From Escherichia phage ECO319P1, in the sequence record OP172790: a stretch of 64,000 bases of DNA; one strand, given 5' to 3'. Under the pieces are notes generated by a model that did no database searches, was not told the DNA's origin, and saw only the letters and a program-made list of their open reading frames with translations. The position numbers and the translations under genes are program-made. Of this stretch, positions 2,476 to 36,060 are shown one piece after another (position 1 is the stretch's first letter; each line of letters opens with the position of its first letter).

Positions 2476-3348
2476 ATGGTTTGGGCAGTTATTGAAAACC
2501 ACAAAGGCCAACGGGAAGATTTCCGTAAGCCGTGCTTTGGTTTCATGTCCTACATTCATCAGTGGTACGAAACTGACGAGTGGGACGACGAAGAGGACGA
2601 TTGGGAATACGAATACCTTGAAGGTTTCGAACCCGCCGAACTCAACCTCATGCACTACTTCCCTGATTTCCGCAACCATATGCCGAGTCAGGATTTGCCT
2701 GAGTTCCGTGAGAAGTATCTGCCTGTGCTGTTGGAAGCTGTGAAGCTTCTGCCTCAGTATTACTCGAACGTTGAGTACACTGCTCCAACTGATAGCACTC
2801 AGGAGACGTTTACGTTCGCCCTGCAAGATGCGAACATGCAAACGACAATCATCGGTGCTATGATGCTGCGTAACATTGCTCAGTATTCTGGTATGCGTCG
2901 CGTGTTCCGTCTTTGCGTTGACGCTGGCCTTGACCCTGTAACCTGCTTCGTTATGGGTAACATGTACAGCAGCAACTACTGCTCGTTTGGTGCTGATGCT
3001 GGTAAGTATCTGGCAAACCCTGTTCACTACGGTGACGAGTCAATCTTCCCAGATGAAACTCGCGCTTGTGATATCCAGGCGTTCATTGACGGTAAGCTCG
3101 GTCACATCTACCAAGGTGTGTGGGGCGATACTGAAAATGGTTATGGTCGTTATGGTGAGTATGACGGTGATACCGCACCTCGCTTTGAACGTACCGGTAA
3201 TCGTTCAACCATCACTGACACTCTGCTGTTGGCTGATGATTACGTTGACTCACCATTGCTGATGGATATCGAAATCGGTGTTTGTTCATCGGCTCGCTTC
3301 AGTGATGAAGAGTTGATTGTTCTTGCTGGTAAAATTACTGGTAAATAA
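2476..3348 (+). CDS. hypothetical protein, first gene of amidoligase cluster (acidic W/E/D-rich N-region)
   Basis: AGAGGTG RBS, ATG start, 290 aa; co-oriented and tightly spaced with downstream ligase genes. Confidence 0.6.
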   Translation: MVWAVIENHKGQREDFRKPCFGFMSYIHQWYETDEWDDEEDDWEYEYLEGFEPAELNLMHYFPDFRNHMPSQDLPEFREKYLPVLLEAVKLLPQYYSNVEYTAPTDSTQETFTFALQDANMQTTIIGAMMLRNIAQYSGMRRVFRLCVDAGLDPVTCFVMGNMYSSNYCSFGADAGKYLANPVHYGDESIFPDETRACDIQAFIDGKLGHIYQGVWGDTENGYGRYGEYDGDTAPRFERTGNRSTITDTLLLADDYVDSPLLMDIEIGVCSSARFSDEELIVLAGKITGK

Positions 3349-3359
3349 AGGATAAAACA

Positions 3360-4304
3360 ATGTCAGTAAAATTCGACGTAGTTTACAAGGATGGATTCAA
3401 ATTGAAAATGACCTCAATTTGTTTCGGTGTAATGGAGAAGGGGCGCTGGAATGAAATCAACGGGTATCGCAATATGCCCGCTGAGAATCATCAGGATGCA
3501 GACCAGCGCTTCATTCAGTTCTACACCAACGCTTACATTCACCCGATGTGGGCGTATGAAGAAGGTATTAAGCGCGATTGGCCTCGTGGTGAAGATAACC
3601 AAGAAGGTCGAAACAAAGCTTCGAAGAACTTCATCAATGAGATGAAAGAACTTCAGAAAGACATGCCGTTCCTGCAAGGGCTTGTCACCTTCCATCCATT
3701 GTTACACGTTGCCCGTGTGCATATCAAAAATCACACGGTTGACCAGATTATGCTGGCATTGTTTTTGGTACGTAACATGTGCCATTACAGCAACAACTGT
3801 TTCACTTACCGCTGGTTACGTGAGACATACAACATGCGTCCAATGCTGGCGGCAGTAATGTGCCATCAGTTCTCAATGGACTTAGGCTCGTTCGGGCGTC
3901 ATTCGTTCTCTCCAGCATGTCTGGGTGAGTACAACTGGATTAACCCCCAGACGTTCGGTAAAGAGTCGTTGCTTCGTTTCATGACCCATACGAAAGAAAC
4001 AGAATTCGAATATCGTCAGGGCATGTGGAAGGACAGTAAAGGTTATCGTCGTGACGACCACTTTGCTCGTAACGATGTTATCTTCGACAGCGAAATCGGC
4101 GGCTCGAACAAATACTGGAAGATGGTAGCACCATTCAGTATTCCGGGCGACGAAGCGATTAATGCCAATCAATGTAAAGACCGTTATAGCGGTATGGTGA
4201 TTGGTCGCAGTTGGAACCACGAACTGAGCCAAGGTGAAGTAGAGAACTACATCAGTGGTGTTCTCGAACTTCTGGCAGAAAACAATATCCCAGCAACTCT
4301 CTAA
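3360..4304 (+). CDS. hypothetical protein (amidoligase cluster)
   Basis: AAGGA RBS, ATG start, 314 aa, 11-nt spacing from upstream gene. Confidence 0.6.
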   Translation: MSVKFDVVYKDGFKLKMTSICFGVMEKGRWNEINGYRNMPAENHQDADQRFIQFYTNAYIHPMWAYEEGIKRDWPRGEDNQEGRNKASKNFINEMKELQKDMPFLQGLVTFHPLLHVARVHIKNHTVDQIMLALFLVRNMCHYSNNCFTYRWLRETYNMRPMLAAVMCHQFSMDLGSFGRHSFSPACLGEYNWINPQTFGKESLLRFMTHTKETEFEYRQGMWKDSKGYRRDDHFARNDVIFDSEIGGSNKYWKMVAPFSIPGDEAINANQCKDRYSGMVIGRSWNHELSQGEVENYISGVLELLAENNIPATL

Positions 4305-4316
4305 GGTAATAAAGAC

Positions 4317-5114
4317 ATGCGTAAGATTTACTTAGGTTCAGACCCAGAGCTGTTTACTCGTGATGCAAACGGCCTCGTATCATCTGTAGCTGGTAAGCTC
4401 GGTGCTGATAAGTATCACAAACGCCATGTCACGGACGACATTCGCATTCAGGAAGATAACGTGCTGGTTGAATTTGATATCAACCCGCATGGCACATTTG
4501 CAGGGTTCAACGATAACATGATGCGTGGTATCGCTGCCTGTAATGACGCTGCGAAATCTGTCGGTCACGAAGTTGACCTGACTATCTGCTCTCACGTTTT
4601 CAGCGATGCAGAGCTTCGTACTTTCCACAAAGACGCATTCGTGTTTGGCTGTGAGCCAGACTTCAATGCCCTGACTGGTTCTCGTAATGCGAAACCGGCT
4701 GCTGCGGATGTAGGTCTGCGTACTGCCGGTGGTCATATTCATATCGGTTATAACGAAGACCGCAACGTTGACTCTGAATCTCAGAAGATTCTGGGTGTAA
4801 TGTGTGATTACTTCCTCGGTATGCCAGCTATCCTTCTGGATGGTGACGACCGTCGTAAAGAACTGTATGGTAAAGCTGGAGCTTGCCGCTTCAAAACCTA
4901 CGGTATCGAGTATCGTGTTCTGTCCAACTTCTGGACTCTGGACGATAAGATGCGTCTGTGGGCTTGGGAACAGGCTCATAAAGCATACGACTTCACTGTT
5001 GGTGATGCAATGGTGTTGGCGTCAATTGTTGACCCGGAAGAAATTCAGCGTGTCATTAATAACAATGACAAGGCAATGGCTGAACATTACATCAAGCTGC
5101 TGGAGATTATGTAA
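4317..5114 (+). CDS. putative carboxylate-amine (COOH-NH2) ligase, amidoligase family paralog A
   Basis: Motifs GSDPELF (acidic pair), GGHIHIG (His-x-His), GIEYRV (Glu-x-Arg) matching the pattern of the neighbouring ligase paralog and of glutamine-synthetase-like amidoligases. Confidence 0.55.
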   Translation: MRKIYLGSDPELFTRDANGLVSSVAGKLGADKYHKRHVTDDIRIQEDNVLVEFDINPHGTFAGFNDNMMRGIAACNDAAKSVGHEVDLTICSHVFSDAELRTFHKDAFVFGCEPDFNALTGSRNAKPAAADVGLRTAGGHIHIGYNEDRNVDSESQKILGVMCDYFLGMPAILLDGDDRRKELYGKAGACRFKTYGIEYRVLSNFWTLDDKMRLWAWEQAHKAYDFTVGDAMVLASIVDPEEIQRVINNNDKAMAEHYIKLLEIM

Positions 5115-5692
5115 TGGCTTTACACGATGATTTTGCAATGTACTATAATGGTACATATGTTGGTTATCGTAAAGATGGGGATGTAGTCCCCTTCTACATC
5201 GAAGCGGTTGATACTGACCGCTCAATCTTTGATTACTCAGAAGCGTCTGAGTCAGAGATGTTCGGTGACCAAGCGCTGAGTGCGTTGACCTTCTACGGAA
5301 GTATCGACGGCAACCGTGCAACGATTAACCACGACGACCCGAATCTGGTTCTTGAAATGCCAGATAGTAAGTACATCCAGTTCCGTGGACGTTACTATTG
5401 GGTTCAATGGCGAGCGAACCGTTCCACTAAGAAGGGAATGGGTCAGCGTCGTCTCTCAGGCATTCCGCAATTCAACCATGAAGTCGCTCGTGCGATGTTC
5501 TCGGAGCGGTCTGCACCAAACGTAATCGCAGGATGCTTGTTACGTCAGAATAATGAACTTCACTACAAGGGTGTGGTGGTCGGTTCAATCAATGGCAACG
5601 AAGTTGTGTTGGTTTCCGAAGCTGCTCACCTGTTACGTTTTGTATCACGGGAGATGCAGGAATGCCAAGTTTCGGTAGCACAAGCGGGCTAA
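5114..5692 (+). CDS. hypothetical protein (amidoligase cluster)
   Basis: Start overlaps upstream stop (TAATG), GGAG RBS; 192 aa. Confidence 0.55.
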   Translation: MALHDDFAMYYNGTYVGYRKDGDVVPFYIEAVDTDRSIFDYSEASESEMFGDQALSALTFYGSIDGNRATINHDDPNLVLEMPDSKYIQFRGRYYWVQWRANRSTKKGMGQRRLSGIPQFNHEVARAMFSERSAPNVIAGCLLRQNNELHYKGVVVGSINGNEVVLVSEAAHLLRFVSREMQECQVSVAQAG

Positions 5693-7173
5693 GTGAGTCG
5701 TCATTAGCAACCCTCCGCGAAGCGGGGGTGATTGACTCAGAAGGTAACTGGTTAACTGGTAACATGCCTTCACCTTTTGGTGGAGGTTTGGTTGGTTATA
5801 ACACTGCTGATGTTATTCCTGACACACCACCACCAAGACCAGCACGGACAAGACACGATGGGCGACCATTGCGTTCAAGTTCGTATGCCGACATGTTCGG
5901 TGGTCTTCGTGCTCAGCCGGTTGCTATGGATGAAATGCCTGAGACTTCAGGTGATTATTATATTTCTGGTAATGTAGAGGCCGATTCAGAAATGCAAACT
6001 ATTGCGCAAATTGTTGGGCACCGTGCAACTTATCCAACTCTTGAGAAGCATCCGCTGATTGTAGGTACAAATTTGGCAGGTGTTGAGATTGAGTTGGAGG
6101 GCATCACTGCTCGTGCTCCACGTTTCAACTACTGGACAGCAAAAGGTGATGGCTCTCTCCGTAACCGTGGGATGGAATTTGTTTGTTCATCTCCGTGGGG
6201 TGGTCGTGACCTGTACAATGCAGCCATTGAAATTGATGGTTGGTTGTTCACTGCTCAGCCAGAAGATACTTGGCGTTGTTCTACTCACGTACACATTGAT
6301 GTTCGTGATATGACTGTGCCGCAGTTGAAGCGAATGATTCTGGCATATGCAGTTTACGAACGTATTCTGTTCAAATGCTCAGGCTTCCATCGTTACAAGA
6401 ATAACTTCTGTGTAGCGTTGGGCTTCGCTCAGGAGTTGGTAACAACTCTGTCTAATGCGTGGGCACTTCCTGATAACCAGTTCATCAGTCGTTTGACTGG
6501 AAATTGGGATAAGTATTCCAGCATCAACATGCTTCCGATTCAGCAGTTCGGCTCTGTCGAATTCCGTATCAGTGAAGCGAAGTGGCGCAAAGGTCGTCTG
6601 ATTCGTTTGGTTAACCGCTTCCTGTCTCTGAAAGAGATTGCGATGCAGCCATTCGAGGGTTCAGAGTCTGAATTCATTCAGATGCTGGTCAATACCCCGA
6701 TTAGCAAAATCATTCGTAAAGGTCTGCCGAAGGTTCTTCCAGATGCAGAGATGGATATCGAGATTGGTTATAAACTGGCTCACGATATCATTAGCATGGC
6801 GGCCTTGCGTCGCCTGTCTATCCGCCCTCTGGTTCCGAATCTGTCAGATGATTCACGACAGTTTAACGTTGAAATCTTCGAGCCGGGTTATGAGCATATT
6901 ATGACTCGTATCAACCGCTCAGATAATAACGTTGAGTTGCCTCGTGAAGCCCCTGCAACTATCAACTTTAGTTGGTGGTATGAAGTTGAGAATCTGATGC
7001 TTCAGATGGGTCATACCTACGAGCGCAGTTGGTTCACAGCATCAAGCAACAACCGTCAGATTCACTCACTGTTCGAAGAGTATTGTCGTGAACGTCGTGC
7101 TGAGCGTCGTCGTCAGGATGAAATCGTTGAACGTGAAGATGATGAAGACGATACCTCTCCAGAGTTCTGGTAA
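5662..7173 (+). CDS. putative carboxylate-amine (COOH-NH2) ligase, amidoligase family paralog B
   Basis: Motifs GVEIELEG, GDGSL, STHVHIDV, GSVEFRI shared with paralog A; N-terminal approx 110 aa low-complexity; start overlaps upstream gene so true start may be later. Confidence 0.6.
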   Translation: MPSFGSTSGLSESSLATLREAGVIDSEGNWLTGNMPSPFGGGLVGYNTADVIPDTPPPRPARTRHDGRPLRSSSYADMFGGLRAQPVAMDEMPETSGDYYISGNVEADSEMQTIAQIVGHRATYPTLEKHPLIVGTNLAGVEIELEGITARAPRFNYWTAKGDGSLRNRGMEFVCSSPWGGRDLYNAAIEIDGWLFTAQPEDTWRCSTHVHIDVRDMTVPQLKRMILAYAVYERILFKCSGFHRYKNNFCVALGFAQELVTTLSNAWALPDNQFISRLTGNWDKYSSINMLPIQQFGSVEFRISEAKWRKGRLIRLVNRFLSLKEIAMQPFEGSESEFIQMLVNTPISKIIRKGLPKVLPDAEMDIEIGYKLAHDIISMAALRRLSIRPLVPNLSDDSRQFNVEIFEPGYEHIMTRINRSDNNVELPREAPATINFSWWYEVENLMLQMGHTYERSWFTASSNNRQIHSLFEEYCRERRAERRRQDEIVEREDDEDDTSPEFW

Positions 7174-7232: not shown

Positions 7233-9203
7233 ATGTGTGGGATTGTTCTCGCTGGTGGTAACTTAATCGCTCGTGATGTTGAACTGTTCGGTCGTCTACT
7301 GTATGCAGATATCGTTCGTGGTGAGCATTCAACGGGTGTGTTCGCAGGGTTTCGTCCTTTTGGTCATGACCCAATCCTGAAACTTCGTAAAGCCGCTGTT
7401 CCGGCAGATATCTTCTTACGCCGCAAAGAGTTATGGGGTGAAGTGCGTGAACACGCAGTTCCTTCAAAGACTGTTGCAAATTCTTTCACAACTGCCTATC
7501 CGAAATTTATGGTAGGCCACAACCGTTATGCAACTCAGGGTGCAATTAACGATACGAACGCTCACCCGTTCAACCACGGTAAAATCACTCTGGTTCACAA
7601 TGGTACATTGACTGACCAGTCTCTGCTCCCAGACCATAAGAACTTCGCTGTTGACAGTGAAAACGTCGCATGGTCAATCAACAAAATCGGTATTGATGAA
7701 ACTATTCAGAAATTGAATGGTGCATTCACTCTGGTTTGGCATAACGCCGAAGACAGCACGGTGAACATCATCCGTAACGAAGAACGTCCATTCCATCTGG
7801 TTGAAACAACTGGTGGTGATTGGTTCGGTGCTTCGGAAGAAGACATGCTTCTGTGGTTAATTAACCGCAAGAAGTTTGCTCCAACAATCAAACGTCACTT
7901 TGAATGTGAAGTAGGTGTTCAGTACGTCTTTGACGTATCCGAAGGCTTCAAGTTCAAGGAGGAACGGAAGCATACGCTTCCAACCTTTCGCTCATATTCC
8001 TACACTGGAAGAACTGGTGGTTATTGGTATGACCAGTGGGATGATGACTATGGGTACGGAAACGGACGAGGAACTTCAACAACTTCTCGCAACCAATCCA
8101 ATAGCCAGAGCTTTAGCTCAAGCTCTTCTAGCGTAACACCGGACAGCCGTTACAAGCAGTTCAATGATATGCTGGAAAGCCACGGCATCAACGTCAAAAT
8201 GGGTGAGCAACTCCGCTTCGAGAGCTTCCAGTTTGACCAGTATCCTAAGTCTCTGGGCAAGGGTAAAATGACCGGGTATACTGGCACTGGCGAGTATATT
8301 GAGGTTCAGGCTCACGGCACTGATATGGGCATCTTTGTTGAAGGTGCTGAGTACGATGGTAAGATTATCTCGTGCTATGAGCAGAATTACATTCTGACAA
8401 TTATCGTTCAAGACCCAAAACCTGCTCATGTTAATCAGACACTGACCCTCGGTGATTTGGTTAACTCGGCGGCAAAGGAAACTCCAATTCCTGATACAGG
8501 GATTAGTCAGGAAGAGTTGAACGAAGAGTACTACGGTGACGAGGAAGAAGACGACGGCAACGAAGTCGAAGTAACCTTGAACGGTGAGGTGTACTCAAAA
8601 AAGGAATGGGAGGGAAACGACTCATTAAATACTTGCGCAAACTGTTCCTCTCCAATCCCCTTCGACGACGTGATTGATACGGTTGTCGATAATGGCGCTG
8701 CATTCTGCCATGATTGCGCAAAGCATTACAACCTGTTACCCCCTGAGACGGAGGAGCCAATTGCTCCTAACCGTTTCGTCTGCCAAAGCTGTGCCAACGA
8801 ATTGCCGGAAGATTTAGAATCGGCAAAGCCGGGTGTCTGCATTCCTTGTCTTTGCGCTGTAACTAAAGACAACAATACGGAAATGGCACGTCAACAGTTA
8901 ATCGAAAAGTACGACCGTTGGGAATCCAATTTGATGCCAGAGGAAGTGGTCACTCCACTGCTTCCGAAACCAACTGAAGTCTCTCTCGGTGAAATTTCAC
9001 TGATTCGCAAGAAGTTGAAAAACAACTTGCTGGTTACTGTTAAGCAGTGGATGAAGATGAACAACTGTGGTTGGTGTCAAAAGCCAATCCAGTGGGTTGA
9101 TGCTGAAGCCACTGAATTTGTTGGTCAGCAGCCATGCTGTCCGGGATGCTCCAAGAAATTAGAGATGGGCATCCTTCCAAAACCTATCAATAAGGATAAA
9201 TGA
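7233..9203 (+). CDS. class-II glutamine amidotransferase-like (Ntn, Cys2) protein with C-terminal multi-CxxC zinc-ribbon region
   Basis: Begins MCGIVLAGG (nucleophile Cys directly after Met) with NRYATQG...HPF motifs of Ntn GATase-II; Ser-rich linker; C-terminal CxxC pairs (CANC..CHDC, CQSC..CIPC, CGWC..CPGC). Confidence 0.7.
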   Translation: MCGIVLAGGNLIARDVELFGRLLYADIVRGEHSTGVFAGFRPFGHDPILKLRKAAVPADIFLRRKELWGEVREHAVPSKTVANSFTTAYPKFMVGHNRYATQGAINDTNAHPFNHGKITLVHNGTLTDQSLLPDHKNFAVDSENVAWSINKIGIDETIQKLNGAFTLVWHNAEDSTVNIIRNEERPFHLVETTGGDWFGASEEDMLLWLINRKKFAPTIKRHFECEVGVQYVFDVSEGFKFKEERKHTLPTFRSYSYTGRTGGYWYDQWDDDYGYGNGRGTSTTSRNQSNSQSFSSSSSSVTPDSRYKQFNDMLESHGINVKMGEQLRFESFQFDQYPKSLGKGKMTGYTGTGEYIEVQAHGTDMGIFVEGAEYDGKIISCYEQNYILTIIVQDPKPAHVNQTLTLGDLVNSAAKETPIPDTGISQEELNEEYYGDEEEDDGNEVEVTLNGEVYSKKEWEGNDSLNTCANCSSPIPFDDVIDTVVDNGAAFCHDCAKHYNLLPPETEEPIAPNRFVCQSCANELPEDLESAKPGVCIPCLCAVTKDNNTEMARQQLIEKYDRWESNLMPEEVVTPLLPKPTEVSLGEISLIRKKLKNNLLVTVKQWMKMNNCGWCQKPIQWVDAEATEFVGQQPCCPGCSKKLEMGILPKPINKDK

Positions 9204-9204
9204 T

Positions 9205-9438
9205 ATGGATAATTCAATGAGTGAAGTGAAGGTTTTGCGTCTGGATTCACCTGTGGTGGTTCGAAAAGTTCCAATGACTGACTTCGGTAGTGATATGCTC
9301 CGAGCCATTCGTCGCTTCCAAACTGAGGCGTATGAACGTGCAAAAGGTCAGAAGGTGGAAATCCCTTATCCTGTGTGTATTCACATGATGATGTCGGATT
9401 ACTGCAAGCTGAAAGGCATCCAAGTAACCAATGGCTGA
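9205..9438 (+). CDS. hypothetical protein
   Basis: AAGGA RBS 8 nt upstream of ATG, immediately after upstream stop. Confidence 0.45.
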   Translation: MDNSMSEVKVLRLDSPVVVRKVPMTDFGSDMLRAIRRFQTEAYERAKGQKVEIPYPVCIHMMMSDYCKLKGIQVTNG

Positions 9439-21979: not shown

Positions 21980-22483
21980 ATGCCACTTTCAAAGATGGCT
22001 GTTGGGGTTTCCATGAAACTGACGTACAAGAAGGGCTGCCTGATTGCAGCACTGAAGAACAAAGAAGTGGAAGCGATAGCTCACCAAGCTAATTGCTTTT
22101 GCACCATGAAGTCTGGCATAGCACCACAGATTGCTAATGCTTGGCCTCAAGTCCGTGAAGTCGATAAGTTGACTAACTACGGTGACAAGGATAAGATGGG
22201 TTCATACTCACTTGCCACTGTTCCCGAAGGTTTTGTGTTCAACATCTATGGTCAATACCATTGGAATCGGAGAAACGCTGGTTATGGCACTTCTTATGAG
22301 CATCTTGGGATGGGGCTGTCTAGCGTCGCTGACTTTATGGTTAATCATAAGGTTCAAACTTTGGGTCTGCCTCGAATTGGTTGTGGACTTGCTGGAGGCG
22401 ATTGGGGGATTGTAGAACACCTAATCAAACACCACTTTGCACACACCGACATTGAAGTAATTGTCTACGAACTGGAGAAGTAA
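21980..22483 (+). CDS. macro domain protein (ADP-ribose binding/processing); start ambiguous
   Basis: VEAIAHQANC and LPRIGCGLAGGDW resemble macro-domain AIVNAAN and GxGxxG blocks; strong GGAGG RBS at 21932 instead precedes an ATG at 21943 in a different frame. Confidence 0.5.
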   Translation: MPLSKMAVGVSMKLTYKKGCLIAALKNKEVEAIAHQANCFCTMKSGIAPQIANAWPQVREVDKLTNYGDKDKMGSYSLATVPEGFVFNIYGQYHWNRRNAGYGTSYEHLGMGLSSVADFMVNHKVQTLGLPRIGCGLAGGDWGIVEHLIKHHFAHTDIEVIVYELEK

Positions 22484-23610
22484 TGTTAAAGTTAAAAGTA
22501 CTGGAAGAACTCGGTAAGCCATACAAAATCTTCACAGACCATGTGGAGAGCAGTGCTATTGAGCAGTTTGTTGCAGTGATGCAGCAGCCTGATGTGAAAC
22601 AAGGTGCATTAATGCCTGATGTTCATGCAGGTTATGTTCTGCCAATTGGTGGTGTAGTTGCTACTGAGTGGACAATCTACCCATCGTTTGTCGGTTACGA
22701 CATTGGTTGTGGTGTCTGCACCATGCCAACGGATATCAGTGCTCTCGACTTACTGGAAAACCCAGCTAAGTATAAAGCAGCAGTTGAAAAGGTTGTACCT
22801 GTGGGCTTCACTGTCCATCAGCAACCATTCGACTTAGCTGAACTGGAACGCCACATTGGTCGTGCTCCAGAAAGTATTCGTGACATTGCTGAGAGCCATC
22901 TGACTCAGGTTGGTACTCTTGGTGGTGGTAATCACTTTGTTGAAATCGGTATCGCTGAGAAAGATGGTCGTGTTCACATCAGCATTCACTCAGGCTCTCG
23001 TGGCATGGGTGCTCGTGTTGCTGAGAAATACATGCAGCTTTCAGGTGGTGAAGGTATCAACCCAATTGACACTCGTGAACCACTTGGTCGTGAGTATCTG
23101 GCTGCTATGAATTACTGCTTACGTTGGGCATTGTTCAACCGTAAGATGATGGTTAAGAATATTATGGAAGAGTTAGGTCTGGAGTTTAACACCTATCGTA
23201 CACCTGATATCTTCATCAACCGTAATCATAACCACGCAGAATTCAAGGATGGTTTGTGGATTCATCGTAAGGGAGCTACACATGCTGAAGATGGAATGTT
23301 CGGCGTTATCCCAGCTAACATGCGTGATGGAGTTTACATTGTACGTGGGCGCGGTAACCCTGACTCTCTTTGCTCTTCTTCTCACGGCGCTGGTCGTGTC
23401 ATGTCTCGGTCAAAAGCCAAAAAGACTTTCTCTCTGGAAGACTTCCAGTATCAGATGGGTAATGTCGATGCTGATGGGTTTACTATTGATGAAAAGCGTA
23501 TTGACGAAGCACCGGGTGCATATAAAGACATTCACGAAGTGATGAAAAATCAGACTGACTTGATTGACATCATTGACCATGTTAAACCAGTTGTAAACGT
23601 TAAGGGTTAA
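22483..23610 (+). CDS. rtcB: RtcB-type RNA ligase
   Basis: Hallmark RtcB blocks MPDVHAGY, GGGNHFVEI, NHNHAEF, SSSHGAGR. Confidence 0.9.
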   Translation: MLKLKVLEELGKPYKIFTDHVESSAIEQFVAVMQQPDVKQGALMPDVHAGYVLPIGGVVATEWTIYPSFVGYDIGCGVCTMPTDISALDLLENPAKYKAAVEKVVPVGFTVHQQPFDLAELERHIGRAPESIRDIAESHLTQVGTLGGGNHFVEIGIAEKDGRVHISIHSGSRGMGARVAEKYMQLSGGEGINPIDTREPLGREYLAAMNYCLRWALFNRKMMVKNIMEELGLEFNTYRTPDIFINRNHNHAEFKDGLWIHRKGATHAEDGMFGVIPANMRDGVYIVRGRGNPDSLCSSSHGAGRVMSRSKAKKTFSLEDFQYQMGNVDADGFTIDEKRIDEAPGAYKDIHEVMKNQTDLIDIIDHVKPVVNVKG

Positions 23611-35376: not shown

Positions 35377-35397
35377 TAATTATTGCACATTATAATA
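35377..35397 (+). promoter_or_regulatory. copy 3 of conserved 21-bp motif TAATTATTGCACATTATAATA
   Basis: Identical to copy 2; 43 bp upstream of ATG 35440. Confidence 0.5.
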
Positions 35398-35439
35398 GAG
35401 TTCTTTCTTAACACAATTCAAAAGGATTTGTCAATACTT

Positions 35440-36060
35440 ATGTTAAAATTTATTTGGTCTATTATAGCCACTGTAGGTGTACTTGCTTCCTGTTACATAT
35501 CTGATGCTTCTCCTATCATCACAACAGCTTCTGTCATTGGTGTCTTATTTGTTCTTGGTGTAGCTTTCAAGAATGCTTGGACAAACCTGTTAGGTGCTGC
35601 ATTAACGCTGATATATGGATACCTTTCTTACAGTGCAGGTTATTATGCTAACGCACTGATAAATGTGACAGTGCTATTCCCACTACAGTTAATAGCTTTC
35701 TGGTTCTGGAAGAAGACAGAAGGTAAGACGTTTACATTAACTGAAGATTGGAAGAAAGCAATCATAGTGTTATCTGGTATAGGTATCCTCATTTCCTGCA
35801 CACTGACTAAATCCTATGGTTCACATCTTTGGCTTCATGATGGAATCTCAGCGGTATTAGTTATTGTTGCTACTTTCCTCCTGATGTTAAAAGTGAAAGA
35901 ACAGTGGTATGCTTGGATTCCTTATAATGCACTTGAAGTGTTTATGTGGTTCATGGCTGCTTCTTTAAATCCTGATATGTTGGCTATCTTTGTGATGCGT
36001 AGCATCTTCTTTGCTAACTCTCTGATTGGTGCTTACGAGTGGTTCGGTAAGAAATCTTAA
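35440..36060 (+). CDS. polytopic membrane protein, possibly PnuC-like nicotinamide riboside transporter
   Basis: 7-8 predicted TM helices, Trp-rich; segment ALINVTVLFPLQLIAFWFW reminiscent of PnuC; tentative. Track start 35383 lies inside conserved motif. Confidence 0.4.
   Translation: MLKFIWSIIATVGVLASCYISDASPIITTASVIGVLFVLGVAFKNAWTNLLGAALTLIYGYLSYSAGYYANALINVTVLFPLQLIAFWFWKKTEGKTFTLTEDWKKAIIVLSGIGILISCTLTKSYGSHLWLHDGISAVLVIVATFLLMLKVKEQWYAWIPYNALEVFMWFMAASLNPDMLAIFVMRSIFFANSLIGAYEWFGKKS

Follow-up and report, generated by a model that had tools for sequence, protein, structure and literature searches.

A phage class II glutamine amidotransferase head joined to an acidic OB and zinc-finger tail is encoded within a conserved amidoligase module

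A gene of Escherichia phage ECO319P1 (sequence record OP172790) raises the question of what a class II glutamine amidotransferase (GATase) does when its polypeptide carries no synthetase. A preliminary description of the sequence had read the product as an Ntn-type amidotransferase head (MCGIV...) followed by a Ser-rich linker, a middle domain, an acidic stretch and at least three CxxC...CxxC pairs, and had suggested that it acts as a thiol peptidase or hydrolase on a nucleic acid or protein held by a multi-zinc-ribbon region. We analyzed the gene within the whole available stretch of 64,000 nucleotides (the 64-kb window), which is related to Cronobacter phage GAP52; the gene itself is 86% identical at the nucleotide level to gp033 of GAP52 and to phage A24. 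The translated reading frame begins with MCGIV, an AAAGGA Shine-Dalgarno-like motif lies 5' of the start codon, and no alternative in-frame start was found between the upstream stop and the MCGIV start. The product matches PHROG 4736 (E = 4.4e-173, aa 1-540 against profile positions 1-496 of 498), and the cluster to which the ECO319P1 gene belongs is widespread among phages and has long been annotated; within it the gene is unexceptional.

Table 1. Features of the GATase gene, its protein domains and the neighboring module genes (window coordinates).
Feature	Coordinates	Strand	Details
Whole GATase gene	7233..9203	+	Single ORF, 656 aa; stop codon 9201-9203
Class II (Ntn) glutamine amidotransferase domain, aa 1-250	7233..7982	+	Nucleophile Cys2; R98, N123-G124, D141
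Disordered Ser/Tyr/Gly/Thr/Arg-rich linker, aa 251-302	7983..8138	+	pLDDT <50 for aa 257-302
OB domain, aa 303-400: helix and five-stranded barrel	8139..8432	+	Acidic; conserved Y337, G344, G348, E357, H361
Disordered acidic linker, aa 401-442	8433..8558	+	Low pLDDT; 13 D/E vs 1 K/R
Zinc finger module 1, aa 443-505	8559..8747	+	Beta-hairpin, conserved W459, C468xxC471...C492xxC495; acidic; pLDDT >90
Zinc finger module 2 and trailing helix, aa 512-564	8766..8924	+	C517xxC520...C536xxC539
Zinc finger module 3, aa 590-650	9000..9182	+	W606, C612xxC615...C636xxC639; paralog of module 1
Two paralogous proteins, 290 and 314 aa, at module head	2476..4304	+	Shared N-terminal C-[FY]-G motif
phiEco32-type COOH-NH2 ligase type 2	4317..5114	+	Pfam PF14395; PHROG 3815, E 2.8e-106; 61/70 loci
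Conserved 192-aa module protein	5114..5692	+	PHROG 4877; 48/70 loci
Amidoligase_2 (glutamine-synthetase-like COOH-NH2 ligase)	5662..7173	+	Pfam PF12224; PHROG 7469, E 1.5e-115
DUF7195 small protein	9205..9438	+	Pfam PF23825, E 7e-37; begins 1 nt past GATase stop codon
RimK-like ATP-grasp ligase (alpha-L-glutamate-ligase-like)	9714..10913	+	Pfam RimK; PDB RimK E 1.2e-5; 59/70 loci
Gamma-glutamyl(amine) cyclotransferase, AIG2/GGACT	14707..15141	+	Pfam PF06094, E 2e-17; PHROG 2520; 40/70 loci

The protein is built, in order, from a class II GATase head, a disordered linker, an OB domain, an acidic linker and three Cys4 modules (Table 1). AlphaFold2 assigns pLDDT values above 90 to the head, to the middle domain and to all three Cys4 modules and values below 50 in the linkers, and the roughly 400 residues beyond the head form folded domains. 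Fold prediction had been set beforehand as a check on the preliminary description, and it returned an Ntn core together with a Cys-rich tail that is predicted to be folded rather than an unstructured linker.

The head shows sequence and fold features expected of the class II superfamily: a Cys directly after the initiator Met, an Asn-Gly/Arg/Asp pocket and the Ntn alpha-beta-beta-alpha sandwich. Cys2 is present in 47/47 homologs with an intact N-terminus, most of 87 loci start with MCG, and R98, N123, G124 and D141 are invariant (61/61 homologs). These residues align with R73, N98-G99 and D123 of GlmS; we take the equivalents of R73 and D123 to be the clamp on the free alpha-carboxylate and alpha-amino groups of glutamine, and Asn-Gly to be the oxyanion hole. 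The amidotransferase head of the preliminary description thus holds a canonical glutamine pocket, and from its sequence we predict a glutamine-cleaving enzyme. Gamma-glutamyl amidohydrolase activity of the head is possible, and in both sequence and fold the head lies nearer GlmS and PurF than EgtC or YafJ-type hydrolases.

The middle domain, also recognized in the preliminary description, is folded and has an OB barrel topology. Its best OB matches include S1, SSB, Rrp4/40 and DNA-ligase OB domains, and superantigen OB domains score equal to S1 domains against it. With a net charge of -5 and a pI of 5.0 (family mean -3.5; negative in 88% of 121 members), the domain lacks the net basic surface expected of a nucleic-acid-binding OB fold of the S1/SSB type. 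The linker that precedes it contains 15% Ser, 11% Tyr and 9% Gly across the family and varies from 21 to 72 aa in length; the Ser-rich stretch seen earlier (aa 281-300) falls inside its predicted disordered segment. The acidic stretch, likewise borne out, is the linker between the OB domain and zinc finger 1, where the mean net charge is -9 and the sign is negative in 97% of 119 members. An acceptor lysine in the OB hairpin (GKxxG) was considered and rejected, K345 being conserved at just 52%.

The cysteine pairs of the preliminary description are real: six CxxC motifs form three pairs, and when 17 Cys were placed at random in 656 positions 200,000 times, six or more CxxC motifs never arose (maximum 5). 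All 12 CxxC cysteines are invariant in a 37-sequence alignment and are found in at least 51/61 sequences of a broader one. In appearance the Cys4 modules are closer to treble-clef zinc fingers than to classical zinc ribbons, and the “multi-zinc-ribbon” region survives as three Cys4 modules, predicted to be folded, that may not be zinc ribbons proper. An HMM of module 1 cross-matches module 3 at 1e-10, module 2 occurs in about 76/121 close homologs, and module 3 (pI 9.2) is the sole basic part. Family members carry between 0 and 4 zinc finger copies, and many have none; every head in the family is partnered by an OB domain, and the zinc fingers are accessory. More than 80% of members are acidic in the OB domain, in zinc modules 1-2 and in the intervening linker, a property that argues against generic nucleic-acid binding. 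The idea that the zinc region holds a nucleic-acid substrate fares poorly against both this acidity and the variable copy number.

A match to the head domain occurs in 312 of 50,697 cultured phage records, and metagenomic homologs of the whole protein number in the hundreds; among the homologs are those of Pseudomonas (LUZ24-like) and E. coli (phiEco32-like) phages. Among the early gene products of phage SU10, mass spectrometry identified the homolog (PMC4281155). An exhaustive phmmer search with aa 303-656 against 1.84 billion representatives returned 60 matches, all of them with the GATase family architecture or fragments of it, and none of the other ORFs in the window and in six loci has these OB or zinc modules. 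The OB/zinc tail is specific to this family. In the long variants (720-916 aa) Pfam detects the GATase head and no further catalytic domain, and the extra length of some includes duplicated OB or zinc modules. Two proteins that seemed to consist of the head and OB domain only (P0026 and P0093) were rejected as such; they are split ORFs with the zinc region just 3'.

We find that the GATase gene always lies within an enzyme module of five to nine genes. The order is two paralogs, COOH-NH2 ligase, a protein of about 190 aa, Amidoligase_2, GATase, DUF7195, RimK-like ATP-grasp ligase, and GGACT or Peptidase_C26, and it is the same in Crifsvirus, Kuravirus, Bruynoghevirus, 7-11-like and metagenomic phages. 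COOH-NH2 ligase type 2, Amidoligase_2, ATP-grasp ligase and AIG2/GGACT all occur within the 64-kb window. Amidoligase_2 is the most constant neighbor, directly 5' of the GATase gene (offset -1) in 66/70 non-redundant loci and in 42/43 loci with full flanks. The absence of a fused synthetase, as described previously, is therefore true of the polypeptide but not of the locus, where candidate synthetases are encoded next door. The RimK-like ligase, which also carries a Pro/Gln-rich linker and a small C-terminal domain, has MptN, RimK and CofF as its best NCBIfam matches, all under cut-off. The two families of head-of-module paralogs are related to each other (hhalign 92.9%, E = 3.6e-7) and share the C-[FY]-G motif, with C21-F22-G23 invariant. 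Pfam and PDB searches gave no relative of these paralogs or of the 192-aa PHROG 4877 protein, and a PDB search gave none of the COOH-NH2 ligase, Amidoligase_2 or the paralog family at 3360-4304. DUF7195 is the next gene after GATase in loci L002-L005 as well; its C-terminus is not conserved, and a role as a ubiquitin- or Pup-like tag (C-terminal Gly/Glu) was rejected. An SSB-like acidic/aromatic C-terminal tail on the amidoligase, considered as a docking motif, was set aside too, being confined to close relatives. PADLOC found no defense-system match among nine module proteins.

The two putative cleaving enzymes of the module tend to replace each other. Among 43 loci, one has both GGACT and Peptidase_C26, 11 have C26 only, 19 have GGACT only and 12 have neither within 7 kb. 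The Fisher p for this near mutual exclusion is 0.002, a nominal value given the phylogenetic relatedness of the loci. Every locus of this comparison has the class II head. The module appears to form and cleave amide bonds of the glutamate type.

Based on the glutamine pocket and the gene linkage, we tentatively propose that the GATase protein is a glutamine-hydrolyzing subunit that serves the neighboring module ligases and has an acidic docking tail. After removal of the initiator Met, R98 and D141 would hold free L-glutamine while Cys2 attacked its gamma-amide and N123-G124 served as the oxyanion hole, and the head would release glutamate and ammonia. The most likely recipients of the ammonia, in trans, would be the neighboring glutamine-synthetase-like amidoligase(s); these would use ATP to convert a carboxylate of the pathway substrate to an amide. 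A docking or targeting scaffold is the most probable role of the acidic OB domain and of the lineage-specific zinc fingers, with the other module enzymes, or else some cationic or protein ligand, as likely partners in place of nucleic acid. Very few class II amidotransferases, to our knowledge, lack a fused acceptor domain, and hand-off in trans has little precedent. The disordered linker of about 50 residues directly after the head also speaks against an ammonia hand-off, and the 12/43 loci with neither GGACT nor C26 weaken the proposal.

An alternative that we rate as unlikely, yet as the one to be taken most seriously, is that the head is an EgtC-like gamma-glutamyl amidohydrolase, which would strip or proof-read a ligase-added gamma-glutamyl group on an amine-bearing intermediate to give glutamate and the free amine. 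The pocket residues for the alpha-amino and alpha-carboxylate groups would suit gamma-glutamyl-X equally, as in EgtC, a point that counts against an ammonia donor. The GATase protein has no fused acceptor domain, the rest of the module consists of glutamyl chemistry (GS/GCS-like ligases, RimK-like ligase, GGACT or C26), and GS- and GCS-like ligases could use an amine instead of ammonia as the nucleophile. Pairs of this kind serve as precedents: ergothioneine synthesis employs the GCS-type ligase EgtA and EgtC, and butirosin synthesis the ATP-grasp enzyme BtrJ and the GGCT-like BtrG. However, gamma-glutamyl cleavage is seemingly already covered because the module contains GGACT or Peptidase_C26, and these two show a displacement-like pattern while the class II head stays constant. 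The head is also the closer to GlmS/PurF, the NCBIfam EgtC model (TIGR03442) gives 16 bits, the cut-off being 218.65, and the phage protein is not single-domain. More doubtful again is the view that the module does not make a small metabolite but writes a glutamine-dependent amide or glutamyl-type modification on a macromolecule. Its targets would be a basic host protein, a phage protein or nucleic acid, and the OB domain (with the zinc fingers) would bind the target or carrier and gather three ATP-dependent ligases and the glutaminase. If true, the module would represent a novel type of viral machinery for post-translational or post-replicative modification.

The remaining readings we consider improbable. 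A nucleic-acid-directed amidotransferase, with the S1-like OB domain and the zinc fingers as its DNA- or RNA-binding part and amide or glutamyl-type hypermodification of a base or tRNA as the outcome, would fit the S1, SSB, Rrp4/40 and DNA-ligase matches of the OB domain, the basic zinc module 3 and the RNA ligase, RtcB and Nudix genes found near the module. It would also fit a report on viral contigs (Lee et al. 2021, PMC8989533) that places amidoligase and amidotransferase genes beside those for thymidine hypermodification and gives no family for its amidoligases and GATases. We found no 5-HMUDK, aGPT-Pplase or dUMP-hydroxymethylase-type genes among the annotated window ORFs and no thymidine-hypermodification genes among the recurrent neighbor families of the 70 loci, and a link to that pathway was rejected. 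The acidity of most of the tail, the equally good superantigen matches and the absence of zinc fingers from many members make this reading a poor prospect. The thiol (Ntn) peptidase of the preliminary description, with a substrate protein bound by the zinc-finger region, is at least as hard to credit. Ntn hydrolases do include peptidases, treble-clef fingers of the LIM, PHD, p44 and E6-like kinds are typical protein-binding modules, and an acidic tail could bind basic proteins; but a general thiol peptidase is unlikely because the invariant Arg/Asp clamp grips the free ends of glutamine, where an internal peptide bond would not fit, and the zinc fingers are dispensable in the family. Lastly, there is practically no chance that homologs are correctly labeled as L-glutamine:D-fructose-6-phosphate aminotransferase (GlmS), as RefSeq and PHROG annotate them. 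This identity is refuted by the lack of any SIS/isomerase domain in the GATase protein or its long variants and by sub-threshold NCBIfam scores (TIGR01135, 31.8 bits against 418; NF001484, 35.6 against 381), the match being limited to aa 90-207. PurF fares no better, with no PRTase domain and 25.6 bits against a cut-off of 350 for TIGR01134.

The family includes therapy-relevant Pseudomonas and E. coli phages, and its common database name is wrong. Our analysis allows sharper experiments, built on a head with a true glutamine pocket, on the acidic OB domain rather than the zinc fingers as the universal partner, and on the alternation of GGACT and Peptidase_C26.

The amidoligase cluster of phiEco32-type phages was reportedly predicted by Iyer, Abhiman, Burroughs and Aravind in 2009 (Mol Biosyst 5:1636). 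Their proposals, as cited in PMC10580990, include cell-wall modification, exclusion of superinfecting phages and secondary metabolites. The ECO319P1 module has the same protein family (PHROG 4736) and the same gene order, nothing essential differs, and Pfam PF14395 is itself named after phiEco32. In the searchable literature we found no experimental test of the module product since 2009, no activity measurement for any GATase family member and no description of an OB plus treble-clef tail. Compared with GlmS and PurF, in which the class II domain is fused to an acceptor domain (SIS or PRTase), the phage protein instead has an OB domain and zinc fingers. EgtC is without such a tail, and both EgtC and the stand-alone class II domains of the YafJ type are less similar to the phage head than GlmS/PurF. 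MurT/GatD, an example of two-component glutamine-dependent amidation, and the gamma-glutamyl-amine cycle of PuuA/PuuD with GGACT pair an ATP-dependent carboxylate-amine ligase with a separately encoded glutaminase. The phage module resembles them in combining GS-like ligases with GGACT or with Peptidase_C26, the family to which PuuD belongs. The phage head is class II whereas GatD and PuuD have a class I triad, and the likeness is one of analogy. A further analogy is to the LysW/LysX amino-group carrier system, in which a RimK-family ATP-grasp ligase stands beside an acidic zinc-binding polypeptide.

The predicted class II (Ntn) glutamine amidotransferase (GATase) gene is preceded by a Shine-Dalgarno-like AAAGGA, and there is no in-frame start between the preceding stop and the MCGIV start. 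In an AlphaFold2 model built from 61 homologues (mean pLDDT 82), the protein is predicted to form five folded units joined by disordered linkers. Our analysis confirms and refines what the preliminary description had observed: the Ser-rich run lies inside predicted-disordered residues 257-302, the middle domain between the linkers is predicted to fold, the acidic stretch (residues 401-442) holds 13 D/E and 1 K/R, and three CxxC...CxxC pairs are found at 468/471-492/495, 517/520-536/539 and 612/615-636/639. Both the head and the Cys-rich tail modules come out folded, and the middle domain is an OB fold, an identification that is new. When the protein's 17 cysteines were placed at random 200,000 times, no placement yielded six CxxC motifs; the 12 CxxC cysteines are invariant in 37 homologues and near-invariant in 61. 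The pairs had been described as zinc ribbons; because the second CxxC starts a helix in each modeled unit, however, we prefer to call them treble-clef-like zinc fingers, a new assignment. Modules 1 and 3 are paralogues (HMM cross-matches 1e-10 and 2e-8) with a common hairpin and invariant Trp before CxxC...CxxC.

Features of the GATase protein and of the gene cluster around it
Feature	Position	Strand	Remarks
Two paralogous proteins without assigned family	2476-3348 and 3360-4304		first genes of the module
COOH-NH2 ligase type 2	4317-5114		after the paralogue pair
192-aa protein	5114-5692		after the COOH-NH2 ligase
Amidoligase_2	5662-7173		followed by the GATase gene
GATase ORF	7233-9203	+	656 aa, N-terminus MCGIV
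Head	aa 1-250		AlphaFold2 folded unit
Helix and barrel (middle domain)	aa 303-400		AlphaFold2 folded unit
Zinc module 1	aa 443-505		AlphaFold2 folded unit
Zinc module 2 and helix	aa 512-564		AlphaFold2 folded unit
Zinc module 3	aa 590-650		AlphaFold2 folded unit
DUF7195	9205-9438		after the GATase gene, starting 1 nt past its stop codon
RimK-like ATP-grasp enzyme	9714-10913		after DUF7195, followed by a Nudix protein
GGACT	14707-15141		farther downstream of the Nudix protein

In GlmS, the nucleophile is Cys1, the oxyanion hole is Asn98/Gly99, and Arg73 and Asp123 hold the free alpha-carboxylate and alpha-amino group of glutamine. Aligning our family profile to GlmS matches R98 with R73, T101 with T76, N123-G124 with N98-G99, and D141 with D123. 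These pocket residues are invariant in 61/61 homologues, and every one of the 47 whose N-terminus is intact has Cys2. Given that the GlmS clamp is conserved, the pocket is predicted to suit free glutamine or gamma-glutamyl-X but not an internal peptide bond. Overall it resembles the heads of true amidotransferases somewhat more than it does stand-alone hydrolases; the comparison concerns the head domain. Membership of the GlmS, PurF and EgtC families was rejected, as partner domains are missing and NCBIfam scores are 16-36 bits versus cut-offs of 219-418. Databases name homologues “glutamine amidotransferase” or “L-glutamine-D-fructose-6-phosphate aminotransferase”; the latter, a GlmS label, is refuted.

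The gene belongs to a known, widely annotated family, with 681 homologues at E < 1e-5 in a word-indexed search. Among the best 120 and the query, head plus OB occurs in 121/121, zinc module 1 in ~117, module 3 in ~107 and module 2 in ~76, with occasional module duplications. Two apparent “GAT-OB only” proteins proved to be split ORFs with the zinc region encoded just downstream. All five units recur in a phiEco32-like Kuravirus protein (676 aa), a LUZ24-like protein (PaP4, 510 aa) has GAT-OB and one Cys4 module, and 80 further viral contigs include many small forms (355-500 aa) with zero or one. The OB profile still matches the tails of the small forms (hhalign 89.7%, E 1.8e-6). Since these forms retain the OB domain, head plus OB is the universal unit, a newly recognized feature, and the zinc fingers are accessory, lineage-specific additions. 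An exhaustive phmmer search of 1.84 billion representatives with the tail alone returned 60 proteins, each of the GATase family or a fragment thereof; the tail is therefore found with no other head. Among cultured phages, 312 records match the head (121 Pseudomonas, 92 Escherichia, plus Vibrio, Aeromonas and others) and 36, from 7-11-like phages, match the long tail.

Two gene models deserve mention. In phiEco32-like Kuraviruses, an ATT codon, one codon after an in-frame TAG and with a Shine-Dalgarno AGGTGGA 7 nt upstream, precedes the catalytic Cys (7001-7003 in Escherichia phage EcoN5, L006; position 10001 in loci L014, L016, L017, L018 and L020), and judging from sequence AUU is the apparent start codon. 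In the EcoN5 record the CDS is given a later start, and plain ATG/GTG/TTG ORF calling likewise shortens the other five, with the catalytic Cys lost. In the metagenomic phage locus L004 (9170-9750), two adjacent stop codons break the frame between OB and a zinc region that is intact beyond them in the same frame; the gene may be truly split, or the assembly may be in error.

To measure recurrence of the neighbors, we clustered the ORFs of 87 loci, 70 of them non-redundant by the first 80 GATase residues. Amidoligase_2 is present in 66/70 (median offset -1), the COOH-NH2 ligase in 61, ATP-grasp in 59, the 190-aa protein in 48 and GGACT in 40; in the 43 loci whose flanks are complete, they occur in 42, 37, 38, 32 and 20, respectively, and 12 carry a Peptidase_C26 gene (Pfam E 9e-24; PuuD / gamma-glutamyl-hydrolase family). 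The paralogue pair heading the module (hhalign 92.9%, E 3.6e-7; N-terminal C-[FY]-G motif in both) has no Pfam or PDB relative, and divergent copies occur in many loci. DUF7195 keeps its position in examined loci of distant lineages, with a conserved core (RKVPM...G..LR) and a variable C-terminus. Besides a low-complexity linker rich in Pro and Gln (QPQPEQPQPEQPTPTP...), the RimK-like protein contains a small C-terminal domain that is conserved (YK..VDG..TVG.F...GW..P). The LUZ24-like version is without this domain, and in that lineage the type 1 and type 3 zinc modules are also missing; domain and modules may be a co-varying pair.

A further new pattern is the alternation of GGACT and Peptidase_C26. 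Across the 43 loci, all with the class II head, 1 has both, 11 C26 only, 19 GGACT only and 12 neither (nominal Fisher p 0.002 for loci that are non-independent), counted within 7 kb, a limit beyond which more distant GGACT genes, the window's own among them, go unseen. The pattern suggests displacement between enzymes that both cleave gamma-glutamyl-amine bonds. Marine modules carry the C26 gene (PuuD / gamma-glutamyl-hydrolase type, class I GATase-like) in L060 (2657-3283), L053 and ~20 other viral loci, usually without GGACT, which suggests non-orthologous displacement there.

The analysis shows the fold, the pocket, the architecture and the gene linkage; as the best-supported reading, we tentatively propose that the protein is a glutaminase subunit feeding ammonia to the adjacent ligases. 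Cys2 would cleave free glutamine, the adjacent GS-like amidoligase(s) would use the ammonia to amidate an ATP-activated carboxylate, and the acidic OB and zinc-finger tail would dock the GATase to other members of the module or to a target that is cationic or a protein. The main alternative, an EgtC-like gamma-glutamyl amidohydrolase, is compatible with the pocket and suits the module's glutamyl theme, but we consider it unlikely given that GGACT or C26 is also in the module (neither lies within 7 kb in 12/43 loci).

A nucleic-acid-directed role draws on the S1-like OB fold and on zinc module 3, the only unit with a basic tendency. The OB domain, zinc modules 1 and 2 and the OB-to-module 1 linker are, however, acidic in >80% of members, the linker especially (mean net charge -9), which disfavors generic nucleic-acid binding; moreover, no hypermodification genes were found among the window ORFs or the recurrent neighbors of the 70 loci. 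We regard this role as very improbable; the acidic tail, whose restriction to this family is another new point, favors binding of a protein or cationic partner. Similarly improbable is the thiol peptidase of the preliminary description, which is at odds with the invariant glutamine clamp. Overall, the interpretation in that description is partly supported.

The gene shares 86% DNA identity with gp033 of Cronobacter phage GAP52 and with phage A24 (Grimontviridae, Crifsvirus), relatives of Salmonella phage 7-11. Elsewhere the window carries genes for primase/helicase, split DNA polymerase, NrdD/NrdG, a sigma factor and DNA ligase, together with a minus-strand block of large ORFs, all consistent with a phage of this kind. 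Upstream of the module lies a TerD-domain gene (28-594; Pfam E 1.3e-11); locus L003 has TerD and vWA-TerF-like genes at the matching position, and TerD- and TerZ-like genes occur in GAP52. Downstream, a Nudix hydrolase, as in L002 and L004, and a 75-aa ORF with a marginal WYL match (E 1.8e-4) occupy 11152-11912. An Rnl2-type RNA ligase (12620-13585), a phosphatase/Macro-like protein (21980-22483) and an RtcB ligase (22483-23610) form a possible RNA-repair set. A PnuC-like nicotinamide mononucleotide transporter gene (35383-36060) has an NMN_transporter counterpart at a similar relative position in L004.

We found no experimental test of GATase or module function in the literature searched, and genome papers merely list the genes (PMC3890496, PMC3517423, PMC7881722). 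Expression is documented for one homologue, that of phage SU10, where proteomics found the GATase, ATP-grasp enzyme and GGCT-like protein as early products (PMC4281155). Lee et al. 2021 (PMC8989533) report amidoligase and amidotransferase genes, with no assigned role, beside thymidine-hypermodification genes. If the module modifies a macromolecule, the finding would be of greater interest. This module is the phiEco32-type amidoligase cluster that Iyer et al. 2009 predicted; as summarized in PMC10580990, they proposed cell-wall modification blocking superinfection, and Mageeney et al. 2012, as cited there, proposed secondary-metabolite synthesis and phage-host interaction for mycobacteriophage Marvin.
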